Origin: Acidobacteriota bacterium
GTDB lineage: Bacteria > Acidobacteriota > Blastocatellia > Pyrinomonadales > Pyrinomonadaceae
DNA: 64,000 nucleotides
Reading direction: 5' to 3'
NCBI GenBank assembly: GCA_046727215.1
Contig: JBKPCC010000040.1
Coordinates: forward strand, 21,637-85,636
Below, one piece after another: positions 8,749-16,464 of this stretch. The position numbers and the translations under genes are program-made. The notes beneath the pieces were generated by a model. The model did no database searches and was not told the origin of the DNA. It saw only the letters and a program-made list of their open reading frames with translations. The stretch's first letter is position 1. Each line of letters opens with the position of its first letter.

Positions 8749-9162
8749 ATGCAGAAGAATCTGCGACAGAAAAAGATCTTGAGCTTGATTCAGGGGCGGT
8801 CGATTGGCACGCAGGCTGAGTTACGCGGCTTGCTTGAACGATCCGGTGTTCCGGTCACGCAGTCGAGCGTGTCGAGGGACCTGGAAGAACTCGGAGTGGT
8901 GAAGCATCACGGCCGCTACACGGTTCCAAGATCGAACGGCAGTAACGCGCGCGGCTTGTTGAGTCTGGACATAGCGGGCGACAACCTGGTCGTCGCGCGG
9001 ACAGAAGCAGGATTGGCATCAGCGGTCGCGGTTGACATCGATGCGGCAGGGATTACAGAAATCGTAGGCACGCTCGCAGGCGAGGACACGATTTTTATCG
9101 CGGTCGGCGACCCAAAGGCACAAAGGGCGGTAATCAAAAAGGTCTTGGACGTATTTGGATAA
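8749..9162 (+). CDS. argR: Arginine repressor
   Basis: 137 aa with an N-terminal winged-helix (Q.EL...L...G..VTQSSVSRDL.ELG) and an ArgR C-terminal oligomerisation domain (GTLAGEDTIF). It lies divergent to argH and heads the arg operon. Confidence 0.88.
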   Translation: MQKNLRQKKILSLIQGRSIGTQAELRGLLERSGVPVTQSSVSRDLEELGVVKHHGRYTVPRSNGSNARGLLSLDIAGDNLVVARTEAGLASAVAVDIDAAGITEIVGTLAGEDTIFIAVGDPKAQRAVIKKVLDVFG

Positions 9163-9230
9163 TTCGGTATTTGGTTTTTGGTCTTTGGACTTAGGACGTA
9201 GGTCTTGTAACTGGCAACATTGACAATACG

Positions 9231-10415
9231 ATGAAAAAAATTGTTCTCGCATACTCCGGCGGTCTTGATACTTCAGTAATGCTCCACTGGTTACGTAAGC
9301 AATACCAGTGCGAGGTCGTGTGCTACTGCGCCGACGTAGGTCAAGGAGAAGAATTGCATGGCCTTGAAGCCAAGGCACTTGAAACGGGAGCGTCAAAACT
9401 CTACGTGCAGGATCTCCGGGAAGAGTTCGTGCGCGATTATGTGTGGACAGCAGTAAAAGCCAATGCAGTGTATGAGGGCGTCTATCTCATGGGGACGTCT
9501 ATTGCCCGCCCGGTCATCGCGAAAGGGCAGATCGAGATCGCACGTAAAGAGGGCGCCGACGCCGTAGCTCACGGAGCGACTGGCAAGGGCAACGATCAGG
9601 TTCGGTTTGAACTGACTTATTACGCTTTGAAACCAGACATCAAAGTTATTGCTCCCTGGCGCGAATGGGAATTCAAAGGGCGAAGCGATCTGATCGCCTA
9701 CGCGCGACAGCATCAGATTCCAGTCACGGCGACGCATGAAAAACCATATTCGACTGATCGAAACTTGATGCATGTCTCGTACGAAGGAGGAATCCTCGAG
9801 GATCCGTGGAACGAGCCTCCCGAGGACATCTTCCAGTTAACTTTGTCGCCTGAGGCAGCGAAGGATTCACCTGAGTATGTCGAGTTGTCATTCGAACAAG
9901 GAGTACTCGTAGCGATTAACGGCAAATCAGCCGATCCTGTTGCGCTGTTAACTACATTGAATGAGTTAGGCGGCAGGCACGGGATCGGAAGGGTTGATCT
10001 TGTTGAGAACCGTTTTGTTGGAATGAAGTCAAGGGGGGTATACGAAACGCCGGGAGTCACCATTCTTCATGCCGCGCATCGAGCGCTTGAATCAATCACG
10101 TTGGATCGCGAGGTGATGCACTTGCGGGATTCTTTAGGAGTGAAATTTGCAGAGAGTATTTATTACGGGTTCTGGTTCGCCCCGGAATTCGAGTTGCTGC
10201 GGAAGACGATTGATGAAACGCAGCGAAATGTCACCGGCGACGTGCGCTTAAAGCTTTACCGTGGCAACGTGATTGTGGTCGGTCGCCGGTCGCCTCGCTC
10301 GCTGTATGACGAAAATGTTGCAACGTTCGAGGCCGATTCTGTTTACAACCAGCGAGACGCGGAAGGTTTTATCAAACTGAATGCGTTGCGTTTGAGATTG
10401 AGGAACAACAAATAG
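9231..10415 (+). CDS. argG: Argininosuccinate synthase
   Basis: N-terminal [15 protein letters not shown]-loop and conserved motifs [28 protein letters not shown] and [23 protein letters not shown]. Confidence 0.95.
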
Positions 10416-10416
10416 A

Positions 10417-14397: not shown

Positions 14398-15402
14398 ATG
14401 CCAAAGAACTTTCTCAAAACATCCGACTGGGCACAAACCGATTTAGACGCGCTAATCGAATCGGCTCTCATTCTAAAAAAGGGCGATGATCGTTCGAAAG
14501 TTCTGTCAGGTCAATCCGTTGCCCTCGTCTTCTTTAATCCCAGTCTTCGCACCAGGGCTTCGATGCAAGTTGGGATAGCCGAATTAGGTGGTAATGCGAT
14601 TGTATTGGAACCTGGCGGCACCAGCTGGACACTTGAGCATCGCGATGGCGTCGTCATGGATGGTGATAAGACCGAGCATATCGCCGAGTTTGCTCGAGTA
14701 CTGGGCCGCTATTGTTCAGCGATCGGTGTGCGCACGTTTGCTGCACTTAAGAATTGGGAAGAGGAGCGAGTCGATCCTGTGCTCGCCGCTTTTGCGAAGT
14801 ATGCGACCGTTCCGCTAATCAATCTTGAATCCGCGATGCATCATCCCTGCCAGGCCATGGCTGACATGATGACGATTCGCGAGAAACTTGGACGTGGCCG
14901 CAAGAAAGTGTTGTTGACTTGGGCCTGGCATCCGAAACCACTGCCAATGGCCGTGCCTAACAGTTTTGCATCTGCGGCAGCGCAATTCGGCCACGATCTC
15001 GTCATTGCTCATCCACCGGGTTACGAACTCGATGAAGCGCTCATGAGCGGGCTTCGCGACCAAGCGGCGCAATCAGGTGGTAGTGTCGAGGAAACGACGA
15101 ATGTTCACGCAGCTTTCGCCGGGGTCGAAGTTGTTTATGCAAAGAGCTGGGGCTCGAAAAAATTCTATGGGGCTTTGGACCACGATGTTGCTGAACGGGG
15201 GCAGTACCGTGACGATTGGATTGTTGATGAAGCGAAGATGGCGCTTACGGACAAGGCGATCTTCATGCATTGTTTACCTGTGCGTCGAAACGTAATCGTG
15301 ACGGACGCTGTGATCGATTCCTCAACTTCTGTTGTTATTGACGAAGCTGAGAATCGATTGCATGTGCAAAAGGCGATCTTGAGCAAACTCTTGAGACGAT
15401 GA
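14398..15402 (+). CDS. argF: N-acyl-L-ornithine carbamoyltransferase (ArgF'-type: N-acetyl- or N-succinyl-ornithine transcarbamylase)
   Basis: Carbamoyl-phosphate motif FFNPSLRTR and C-terminal HCLPVRRN, as in the AOTCase/SOTCase branch rather than classical OTCase. I cannot assign acetyl versus succinyl specificity by eye. Confidence 0.8.
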   Translation: MPKNFLKTSDWAQTDLDALIESALILKKGDDRSKVLSGQSVALVFFNPSLRTRASMQVGIAELGGNAIVLEPGGTSWTLEHRDGVVMDGDKTEHIAEFARVLGRYCSAIGVRTFAALKNWEEERVDPVLAAFAKYATVPLINLESAMHHPCQAMADMMTIREKLGRGRKKVLLTWAWHPKPLPMAVPNSFASAAAQFGHDLVIAHPPGYELDEALMSGLRDQAAQSGGSVEETTNVHAAFAGVEVVYAKSWGSKKFYGALDHDVAERGQYRDDWIVDEAKMALTDKAIFMHCLPVRRNVIVTDAVIDSSTSVVIDEAENRLHVQKAILSKLLRR

Positions 15403-15525
15403 GATCCACAGATTACACAGATTCCACAGATTAGAACTATTCGTGTTGTTTCGTGTATTTCGTGGATTCAGCTTGCTAGCGCCGAGAAAACGAATCCACG
15501 AAATCACACGAAAGAACACGAAACG
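15403..15525. repeat. Family-1 word block (ATCCACAGATTACACAGATT) followed by a family-2 hairpin, between argF' and argB
   Basis: ATCCACAGATTACACAGATT lies at 15404-15423, starting 2 nt after the argF' stop. TTCGTGTTGTTTCGTGTATTTCGTGGATTC (about 15440-15469) pairs with GAATCCACGAAATCACACGAAAGAACACGAAACG (15492-15525). Confidence 0.7.
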
Positions 15526-15552
15526 CTGTTTATGGGTGGATATTAAGGAGCG

Positions 15553-16464
15553 ATGAGAGAAACGATCGTCGAAGTAGACAACCAATTACGATTGGATCTC
15601 CTGCGCGAAGCACTGCCGTATATTCAGCGCTTCAAGGGTAAGACCTTTGTCGTCAAGCTCTCAGGCAAGGCAACAGAGGACGCCGTGAACTTGAATTCGC
15701 TCGCGGAAGAGCTGGCGCTGCTACATCAGGTCGGCATACGAATCTGCGTCGTGCACGGCGGTGGTAAGCAGCTGAGCGAGCTGGCTTCGAAGCTGGGAGT
15801 GGAACAGACGATTATCGAAGGCCGGCGAGTGACTGATGATGCAACGCTGGAAATGGCCAAGATGGTCTTTGCAGGAAAAATCAATACAGATATTCTTGCA
15901 GCTCTCAGAAATCACAGCATCGAAGCAGTCGGCCTCTCTGGAGTGGATGGCAATATTGTGCACGCCGAGCGCAGGCCTCCCAAAGAAGTTCTCAATCGCG
16001 AAACAGGAGCCCGCGAGCAAGTGGACTTCGGTCATGTGGGCGATGTAGTCGAGATCAACGCTCGCTTACTTACTGTGCTGCTTGATCACGGATACTTGCC
16101 CGTAATCTCGTCGCTCGGCGCTGACGCTGAAGGGACAGTCTTCAACATCAACGCCGATACGATTGCGGCAGAAATTGCGGTTCAACTTCAAGCAGAGAAA
16201 TTAATTCTACTCTCCGATGTCGATGGGTTGTACCTTCGACCGGGCGAACCCGAGACAAAGCTCTCCCGTTTGAATGCCGCAGAAGCAGAAGCGCTGATCA
16301 ATAGCGGCGCCGCATCAGGCGGTATGATTCCCAAATTGCAAAGCATTGCCGCCCTCCTCCGGCGTGGATTGCACACTGCTCACATCATCAGCGGTACGAA
16401 TCGCAATGCTTTGCTGTCCGAAATCTTTACCGACAAAGGCACCGGCACAATGATTGTCGCCTAA
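15553..16464 (+). CDS. argB: Acetylglutamate kinase
   Basis: AAK-family motifs (FVVKLSGKA, VVHGGG.Q, GHVG.V..IN, NINAD..A..IA, GGM..K). About 300 aa, with the N-terminal helix of arginine-sensitive ArgB. Confidence 0.93.
   Translation: MRETIVEVDNQLRLDLLREALPYIQRFKGKTFVVKLSGKATEDAVNLNSLAEELALLHQVGIRICVVHGGGKQLSELASKLGVEQTIIEGRRVTDDATLEMAKMVFAGKINTDILAALRNHSIEAVGLSGVDGNIVHAERRPPKEVLNRETGAREQVDFGHVGDVVEINARLLTVLLDHGYLPVISSLGADAEGTVFNINADTIAAEIAVQLQAEKLILLSDVDGLYLRPGEPETKLSRLNAAEAEALINSGAASGGMIPKLQSIAALLRRGLHTAHIISGTNRNALLSEIFTDKGTGTMIVA

Follow-up and report, generated by a model that had tools for sequence, protein, structure and literature searches.

In the arginine biosynthesis operon of a soil bacterium of the Acidobacteriota (Pyrinomonadaceae; contig JBKPCC010000040.1), a gene for an uncharacterised P-loop protein of 362 residues, here called X, lies directly upstream of argC, and we propose, with moderate confidence, that it encodes a non-orthologous N-succinyl-L-glutamate synthase, which would replace ArgA or ArgJ and use a CoA-type acyl donor. 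The operon itself is a real, well conserved and internally coherent feature, and X is a predicted enzyme. The key idea has largely been anticipated, being already in the literature as a prediction (bioRxiv 10.1101/2024.10.14.618325), and X would be a phylogenetically distant member of the same kind.

The DNA analysed, referred to as the window, is the whole 64-kb stretch, which was studied through a listing of its open reading frames (ORFs) together with Pfam and NCBIfam scans. ORF calls and family scans agree with the gene order claimed in the first-pass annotation of this sequence, which is argH (minus strand), then argR-argG-X-argC-(tRNA-binding protein)-argD-(85-residue membrane protein)-argF′-argB:

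7204-8709, minus strand: argH, argininosuccinate lyase, divergent from the operon (TIGR00838, 613 bits; Lyase_1 and ASL_C2 domains)
8749-9162, plus strand: argR, arginine repressor (PF01316, PF02863)
9231-10415, plus strand: argG, argininosuccinate synthase (NF001770, 634 bits)
10417-11505, plus strand: X, uncharacterised P-loop protein, 362 residues (no Pfam or NCBIfam family at threshold)
11502-12530, plus strand: argC (TIGR01850, 393 bits)
12527-12892, plus strand: tRNA-binding protein, 121 residues (PF01588, 67.6 bits)
12889-14088, plus strand: argD, N-acyl-ornithine aminotransferase (PF00202, 336 bits; argD-family models)
14117-14374, plus strand: membrane protein of the CBU_0592 family, 85 residues, three transmembrane segments (NF047864, 96 bits against a cutoff of 25)
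14398-15402, plus strand: argF′, knotted acyl-ornithine carbamoyltransferase, predicted to be of the N-succinyl-ornithine type (NF003384, 453 bits)
15553-16464, plus strand: argB, N-acyl-glutamate kinase, 303 residues (TIGR00761, 223 bits)

X is translationally coupled to both argG and argC, as read from the junctions in the sequence. The argG stop codon TAG is followed by a single base and then by the ATG of X, and ATGA overlaps occur at 11502, 12527 and 12889; the 1-nt gap and the three overlaps described at first pass are all visible in the raw sequence.

The partnership of X with argC is nearly universal in related genomes. In a scan of one genome per species with a narrower X profile, at least 591 genomes were matched, and among the loci of the best 80, all from Blastocatellia, argC lies directly 3′ of X in 74 of the 75 that could be assessed. 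The gene 5′ of X is argG in 55 of 66 loci and argR in another 10. Close homologs of X carry the labels Pyrinomonadaceae, Acidobacteriota and Blastocatellia, and an exhaustive HMMER search of 1.84 billion cluster representatives returned 1,420 matches at E ≤ 1e-3 and 910 at E ≤ 1e-10. Of the relatives examined, those from Gemmatimonadota and Pseudomonadota also have X linked to arg genes, at identities as low as 31%. A metagenome-assembled genome labelled Pseudomonadota/"Deltaproteobacteria" (49% identity) has argR-X-argC-argD-argF′-argB with a divergent argH-argG, a Gemmatimonadota homolog (47% identity) lies in Amidohydro_1/argR-X-argC-argD-argB-argG, a homolog of 42% identity sits in X-argC-argD-argB, and one of 31% identity is flanked by argG and a carbamoyltransferase. 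Neither an ArgA nor an ArgJ domain was found in the distant X-bearing clusters or in up to 10 kb of flanking DNA in the relatives. The conservation of gene order among relatives, proposed as a check at first pass, is thus near-universal for X-argC and patchy for the other two extra genes of the operon, and among the three extra genes X is the conserved component.

The first-pass annotation had argued that a pathway of this kind depends on an enzyme that N-acylates glutamate and on an acyl-citrulline deacylase, neither of which the cluster encodes, and this is borne out, for the canonical genes, both in the cluster and in the scanned ORFs. The Pfam scan covered the ORFs of at least 150 residues, leaving aside spurious overlapping ORFs and three ORFs that adjoin oligopeptide ABC genes (37499-38443, 38586-40193 and 42119-45232), and none of the window ORFs that it covered carries an ArgJ, ArgA/N-acetylglutamate synthase (NAGS) or M20 (ArgE) domain. 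Presumably argA, argJ and argE are absent from the rest of the genome as well. The only GNAT protein in the window (20374-20958) was considered as a short NAGS and rejected, as its position is syntenic in just 1 of 80 related loci.

The transcarbamylase of the operon indicates which acyl group the pathway is likely to use. The knotted enzymes, N-acetyl-ornithine transcarbamylase (AOTCase) and N-succinyl-ornithine transcarbamylase (SOTCase), share the motifs Fx(E/K/N/D/A/Q)xSxRT, HPxQ and HxLP and a proline-rich loop (PMC4581275). By its sequence ArgF′ is a member of this group: it contains FFNPSLRTR, HHPCQ and HCLPVRRN, the first and last of which had already been recognised at first pass as the acyl-ornithine transcarbamylase pattern, it scores 453 bits against a cutoff of 288 on NF003384 (acyl-ornithine carbamoyltransferase), and it aligns end to end with the X. 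campestris AOTCase (E 7e-103), including WHPKPLPMAVPNS against YHPKPLNTAVANS. Its closest solved relatives are the X. campestris AOTCase (348 bits) and then the B. fragilis SOTCase (230 bits). In X. campestris numbering, AOTCases carry E92, N185 and K302, whereas SOTCases have A, S, P, V or Q at 92, P at 185, and V, I or E at 302 (PMC4581275). In an alignment with the X. campestris enzyme and with mutants of it at E92 and K302, ArgF′ has T92, P185 and I302. P185 and I302 fit the SOTCase rule exactly, and T92 falls outside the published list of residues and is not Glu; threonine at this position has been treated as chemically similar to the listed SOTCase residues (bioRxiv 10.1101/2024.10.14.618325). 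Among 63 ArgF′ proteins linked to X, position 92 is Thr in 59, Ser in 3 and Ile in 1, and is never Glu. This triad, and the lack of Glu92 in X-linked ArgF′ proteins, make it most likely that the arginine pathway here, like that of Bacteroidetes, proceeds through N-succinylated intermediates. The acyl-ornithine type assigned at first pass therefore stands and can be made more specific, since the triad is probably of the succinyl rather than the acetyl type.

ArgB fits an acyl-glutamate pathway without a carrier protein. Its score on the argB model, 223 bits, clears the cutoff of 151, whereas on the two [LysW]-kinase models it reaches 150 bits where 223 are required and 133 where 194 are, and the cluster contains no ATP-grasp or LysW-like gene of a LysW/ArgW carrier pathway. 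Bifunctional ArgB proteins of the 3S6G/3S6K type align with it weakly, and the fused acetyltransferase (GNAT) domain that they possess is lacking here. The best solved relatives, 2JJ4, 2BTY and 2BUF, align from residue 6-15, and E. coli 1GS5 only from residue 33, which is consistent with an ArgB of the arginine-sensitive hexameric type with its N-terminal helix present. The N-terminal helix of N-acetylglutamate kinase goes with arginine sensitivity, and the sequence suggests feedback control at the ArgB kinase. At about residues 139-151, ArgB also has an insertion of ~12 residues (RRPPKEVLNRETGAREQ) in comparison with every solved N-acetylglutamate kinase, and this insertion might be related to a succinyl substrate.

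A protein with the same hallmarks as X has been described in another phylum. In the July 2026 version of the "GapMind 2026" preprint, Steroidobacter denitrificans is reported to lack ArgA, and ACG33_RS14135 (A0A127FCT3) is predicted, without experiment, to be an alternative N-succinylglutamate synthase (bioRxiv 10.1101/2024.10.14.618325). Its homologs are virtually always in arg operons and never occur alongside ArgA homologs, position 92 of the neighbouring ArgF′ proteins is A, P, S or V in 90% and I or T in 7%, and its AlphaFold model weakly resembles the D-glutamate N-acetyltransferase DgcN (7XRJ; E 1.4e-7, root-mean-square deviation (rmsd) 5.6 Å); ArgE is also missing in S. denitrificans, and argE-like neighbours occur in some genera (bioRxiv 10.1101/2024.10.14.618325). 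X shares the combination of arg operon and succinyl-type ArgF′, given its adjacency to argC, the arg linkage of its distant homologs and the lack of Glu92, and on these shared hallmarks it very probably belongs to the ACG33_RS14135 family. There is no Steroidobacter entry among the named homolog-cluster members listed for X, and literature searches on DUF1611, on DgcN with N-acetyl-D-glutamate and on DgcA in D-glutamate catabolism yielded nothing relevant.

No Pfam or NCBIfam family reaches threshold on X, and the sub-threshold matches (CbiA, DUF1611_C, AAA_26, MobB, BioD and CobQ) are limited to ~35 residues around the P-loop. PF07755 (DUF1611_C) gives 16.7 bits over 34 residues, short of its cutoff of 25; 15 of 26 members of the X family have sub-threshold matches to it, the best scoring 23.7 bits, and with PF07755 below its gathering score and no match to the N-domain or to the NCBIfam DgcN model, X does not fall into the DUF1611/DgcN family. 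MobB models match 16 of the 26 weakly, and TIGR00347 (BioD) gives 14.8 bits against a cutoff of 83.3. Across these 26 members (28-50% identity) the invariant residues are R86, G175-K176-T177, K198, D253, E258 and D291.

AlphaFold2 models of X were built with a shallow alignment (predicted local distance difference test (pLDDT) 83) and with a deeper one (pLDDT 92.4, predicted template modelling score 0.89), and the latter, a confident model, shows an all-β N-terminal domain (~14-140) followed by an α/β P-loop domain (~160-350) like that of dethiobiotin synthetase (DTBS). In a Foldseek search of the PDB, DTBS 3OF5 ranks first (E 1e-5) and MeaB, HypB and FtsY come next (E ~1e-5), with DgcN 7XRJ at rank 15 (E 1e-4, rmsd 6.0 Å over 242 columns) and the DUF1611 structure 2OBN at rank 24; with the shallow-alignment model, DgcN is outside the top 50 Foldseek matches. 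Neither a single sequence, nor a full-length profile, nor a profile of the P-loop domain reaches 7XRJ, 2OBN or 2G0T from X, and the family profile finds only DTBS, MobB and FtsY among PDB sequences, around the P-loop. In that profile, GT-x4-GKT and the invariant lysine 21 residues downstream (K198) align with GTGTGVGKT...CKP of the M. tuberculosis DTBS. We take the DTBS lysine aligned to K198 to be Lys37, which contacts the γ-phosphate and the substrate carbamate, and D253/E258 ("VIExGDG") are presumably equivalent to the metal-binding "VEGAGG" segment of DTBS. X thus appears to share the catalytic core type of DTBS/BioD without being a BioD, the BioD models scoring far below cutoff in spite of the aligned P-loop and lysine. 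According to its model, X belongs with the DTBS-like SIMIBI P-loop proteins and has an N-domain that is novel, and its modelled likeness to DgcN is real but not specific.

We therefore propose a pathway in which X would form N-succinyl-L-glutamate in place of ArgA or ArgJ, and in which ArgB, ArgC and ArgD would turn this product into N-succinyl-ornithine. ArgF′ would carbamoylate the latter to N-succinyl-citrulline, a desuccinylase encoded elsewhere would free citrulline, and ArgG and ArgH would complete arginine synthesis. Within X, the DTBS-like P-loop domain would bind a phosphate-bearing acyl donor, by analogy with DgcN most likely succinyl-CoA, and the all-β N-domain with its invariant Arg86 could help hold glutamate.

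Several observations weigh against X as a DgcN-like synthase. Its likeness to DgcN is no better than that to the SIMIBI P-loop NTPases DTBS, MeaB, HypB and FtsY, and is undetectable by sequence; the DUF1611_C match covers ~35 residues and stays below threshold, and the all-β N-domain matches no Pfam model, the DUF1611 N-terminal domain model included. Thr at position 92 of ArgF′ is not among the experimentally tested substitutions, and a single enzyme, X, leaves the missing deacylase unexplained. Furthermore, X is placed in the ACG33_RS14135 family by hallmarks and not by alignment, and the synthase assignment of that family is itself a prediction (bioRxiv 10.1101/2024.10.14.618325).

It is possible, though rather doubtful, that X is instead an ATP-dependent ligase of the DTBS type, which would convert succinate to an acyl phosphate for attack by the amino group of glutamate, with no CoA thioester involved. 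Both fold searches rank DTBS first by structure, DTBS and MobB lead the sequence matches in the PDB, the P-loop and lysine of DTBS align with GT-x4-GKT and K198 of X, and the invariant acidic pair D253/E258, kept at 28-50% identity, gives the residue set expected for Mg-NTP chemistry. Judged on the models, the structural case for a DgcN-like acetyltransferase is no stronger than that for a DTBS-like ATP-dependent ligase. What speaks against ligation is that DgcN, the one relative cited that has been characterised biochemically, has been described as an acetyltransferase, that the BioD models score as low as they do (14.8 bits), and that P-loops bind the phosphates of CoA too. The presence of MeaB ("ArgK"), HypB and MobB among the best structural and sequence matches, and the weak MobB matches in 16 of the 26 family members, also raise the idea of an NTPase accessory factor, a chaperone like MeaB, HypB, UreG or MobB serving an arg enzyme or a deacylase. 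We consider this quite improbable: the guanine-specificity motif [NT]KxD is missing from the invariant or near-invariant columns of the X family alignments, no metalloenzyme partner is encoded in the conserved clusters, the first step of the pathway would be left with no candidate, and the tight, near-universal adjacency to argC suits a pathway enzyme better, as does the report that the family never co-occurs with ArgA homologs (bioRxiv 10.1101/2024.10.14.618325).

The proposal that X is a synthase calls for a separate deacylase, and none of the candidates in the window or around the related loci fills this role convincingly. The Asparaginase_2 protein with a twin-arginine translocation (TAT) signal (17947-19149) was considered as a desuccinylase because β-aspartyl and succinyl amides are alike, and was rejected, as export is predicted for it and its synteny is confined to close relatives. 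Among the clustered flanking ORFs of 88 related loci no deacylase family is recurrent. The recurrent families inspected resemble, as judged by eye, TilS, FtsH, Mla, a sigma factor, TpiA, a glyoxalase-like protein and ProRS, and the recurrent Liv-type ABC families near the clusters of relatives match Pfam-scanned ORFs of the window, none of them a deacylase. In the Gemmatimonadota cluster with an X homolog, a 432-residue Amidohydro_1/Amidohydro_3 gene (locus L090, 8096-9394) lies directly upstream of argR, and it is a possible N-acyl-citrulline or N-acyl-ornithine hydrolase in that lineage.

The joint absence of ArgA/ArgJ and ArgE from the cluster and the scanned ORFs, and the lack of a recurrent deacylase family around the related loci, could also mean that X moves the acyl group from N-succinyl-citrulline or N-succinyl-ornithine back to glutamate, in the manner of ArgJ, so that neither a separate synthase nor a deacylase would be needed. 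An arginine-sensitive ArgB is typical of organisms with an acyl-recycling pathway, and the ArgB of this operon appears to be of that type. S. denitrificans, too, lacks ArgE, and on the other side some homologs lie near plausible argE genes (bioRxiv 10.1101/2024.10.14.618325). The Amidohydro_1 gene that adjoins argR in the Gemmatimonadota cluster likewise argues against recycling, and transacylation does not need a P-loop fold with intact residues of the Mg-NTP type. We know of no precedent for ArgJ-like recycling by a P-loop protein such as X, and we regard this reading as very improbable.

The remaining two extra genes had been put forward at first pass, with X, as candidates for a missing or alternative step, and only X, by its adjacency to argC, has kept that standing. 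The tRNA-binding protein passes the PF01588 test (67.6 bits against a cutoff of 27, with the full domain covered); its best NCBIfam matches are MetRS C-terminal models, and the CsaA, YgjH and MetRS equivalogs are below cutoff. It is a free-standing OB-fold protein like Trbp111, CsaA or the MetRS C-terminal domain, and an accessory one. Its gene is found in 23 of 68 related clusters, always between argC and argD, and it is translationally coupled into the arg operon in a third of Pyrinomonadaceae species. The gene for the 85-residue membrane protein is found in 8 of 59 clusters; a SemiSWEET/PQ-loop-like transporter was considered for it and rejected, with no Pfam match even at E ≤ 10. Both genes are absent from every cluster in which X has 65% identity or less, and from the distant X clusters examined, and they are lineage-specific operon passengers, co-expressed with the arg genes but probably dispensable and without a step in the pathway. 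That one or both should perform the missing or alternative step is hardly credible, despite their position inside the operon and the ATGA coupling of the tRNA-binding gene on both sides, as an OB-fold tRNA-binding domain and a miniprotein with three transmembrane segments have no catalytic precedent for acylation or deacylation, and the clusters of most relatives do without them. Because most relatives lack both genes, neither can supply an obligatory step, and they therefore do not account for the deacylase.

The operon and the divergent argH share a control region, which is conserved in relatives:

8660-8748, unstranded: shared argH/argR control region with a promoter-like site and ATGCA/TGCAT pentamers; presumed ArgR operator

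A promoter-like site, TTGAC...TATTTT, is followed there by dense ATGCA/TGCAT pentamers (TTTATGCATCTATGCA and TTATGCAAGATTCATGCATA), seven of them within 54 nt (8696-8749), where 0.09 would be expected per 60 nt. Elsewhere in the 64 kb, three or more pentamers cluster at a single place, 5800-5831, which has three. At least three pentamers occur within 140 nt 5′ of argR in 91% of 66 related loci, compared with 1.25% of random windows, and the layout of the array 5′ of argR is conserved among related loci. The E. coli ARG-box, tried as the operator model, was rejected, since the control region does not fit its consensus, whereas an ATGCA-based motif matches. The array is probably the ArgR operator of Blastocatellia, unlike the E. 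coli ARG-box, and ArgR would bind it. Because this conserved operator-like site lies upstream of argR, X would be expressed together with the arg genes, and the entire argR-to-argB block, X included, is presumably arginine-regulated. The listed GTG start of argH is probably too far upstream, as the TIGR00838 alignment begins only at residue 38, and the true start is probably Met26 or Met34 (~8634 or ~8610); from the listed GTG, argH would extend into the operator region.

Between argF′ and argB the spacer contains a further element:

15437-15525, plus strand: long hairpin with a perfect stem in the argF′-argB spacer, a dispersed repeat of the CACGAAA type

The spacer (15403-15552) has a minimum free energy of -53 kcal/mol (z = -6.1), and none of 200 shuffles is equally stable. 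The hairpin is composed of short repeats of the CACGAAA/TTTCGTG type, pieces of which recur at 4098-4154, 21060-21073, 41790-41903 and 54241-54284, all intergenic judging by ORF coordinates, and the copy near 41.8 kb is a ~15-nt tandem array. The repeat is also present in two related genomes (loci L029 and L040). The element resembles a dispersed REP-like element and may be one, or may serve as an mRNA stabiliser or a processing site.

The surroundings of the operon were also surveyed. Upstream of the arg cluster is a branched-chain amino-acid ABC transporter locus of the Liv type (83-6182), which encodes two each of binding proteins, permeases and ATPases; its families recur close to the arg cluster in 16-32 related loci. 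Downstream, a 192-residue protein without a family match (16461-17039, minus strand) is convergent with argB and overlaps its stop by 4 nt, and is followed by a helix-hairpin-helix protein (17382-17888, plus strand) and by the TAT-signal Asparaginase_2 protein (17947-19149, plus strand), an N-terminal nucleophile (Ntn) hydrolase; this trio is syntenic 3′ of argB in many close relatives and not in distant ones. A signalling cluster on the minus strand (21190-26000) encodes an FHA-GAF-PP2C (SpoIIE) phosphatase, an RDD protein, a Ser/Thr kinase that carries zinc ribbons as well as an FHA domain, and a zinc-ribbon-FHA protein. On the plus strand (26316-33965) lies an efflux locus of the MacB type, with an HlyD-like adaptor, one ABC ATPase and four MacB_PCD/FtsX permease paralogs in a row. 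No tRNA gene occurs within the 64-kb window.

Remote homologs of X (31-39% identity) are also found outside arg clusters. In the archaeal assembly GCA_046540935.1 (locus L086, 8001-10878) an X homolog is joined by an ATGA overlap to a RimK-type ATP-grasp gene, and a second such gene is convergent; another homolog adjoins a RimK-type gene on a short contig (locus L084); and in the fungal assembly GCA_009193465.1 (locus L088, 8001-9056) a homolog lies beside citrate synthase. The wider X family may consist of enzymes that N-acylate or ligate amino acids in cooperation with ATP-grasp ligases.

Reconstructions of arginine biosynthesis repeatedly show a gap at argA/argJ, with the result that abundant soil lineages, for example the Pyrinomonadaceae, are wrongly called auxotrophic. 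The present locus provides independent, phylum-level support for one candidate to fill that gap, an uncharacterised P-loop protein that is the conserved partner of argC in operons of the predicted succinyl type. Were X an ATP-dependent succinate:glutamate ligase, the committed step of arginine biosynthesis would gain a new enzyme chemistry, and the wider family would form a class of amino-acid N-acyl ligases that had so far gone unrecognised, with archaeal members coupled to RimK-type ATP-grasp pairs and a fungal member. In a bolder variant of the ligase proposal, X would also remove the need for a separate desuccinylase.

The system described here can be set beside several that are known. The N-acetyl-ornithine pathway of Xanthomonas provides the closest solved ArgF′ homolog, and shares the motifs of the knotted fold and the overall layout, but E92/N185/K302 of its transcarbamylase are replaced by T/P/I, and the cluster here has no argE. 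The succinyl pathway of Bacteroidetes, with the B. fragilis SOTCase, the GNAT-type N-succinylglutamate synthase BT3761 and the desuccinylase BT3549, resembles it in its knotted transcarbamylase with succinyl-type residues, the type predicted for ArgF′, in an operon that includes argR, argG, argC and argD, and in a first enzyme that departs from the canonical ones. In Bacteroidetes this first enzyme is a GNAT homolog, whereas here it would be a P-loop protein, and the scanned ORFs of the window contain no M20 desuccinylase candidate. BioD provides the closest structure to X (3OF5), and both proteins have the GT-x4-GKT P-loop and, 21 residues further on, the lysine; their identity is ~17%, and X has an extra N-domain of 140 residues and an arginine rather than a biotin context. 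DgcN and DUF1611 proteins (7XRJ, 2OBN) share with X the broad SIMIBI/DTBS-like P-loop domain and glutamate N-acylation, which for X is predicted. DgcN acts on D-glutamate with an acetyl donor in catabolism, whereas X would use L-glutamate and a succinyl donor in biosynthesis, and X differs further in its PF07755 score, below the gathering threshold, and in its all-β N-domain. ACG33_RS14135 is like X in being a hypothetical protein encoded in operons with argR, argG, argC, argD, argF′, argB and argH, in its association with ArgF′ proteins having a residue other than Glu at position 92, and in its weak likeness to 7XRJ (rmsd 5.6 Å, compared with 6.0 Å for X). The two come from different phyla, ACG33_RS14135 from Gammaproteobacteria and X from Acidobacteriota, and the best structural match of X is DTBS rather than DgcN.

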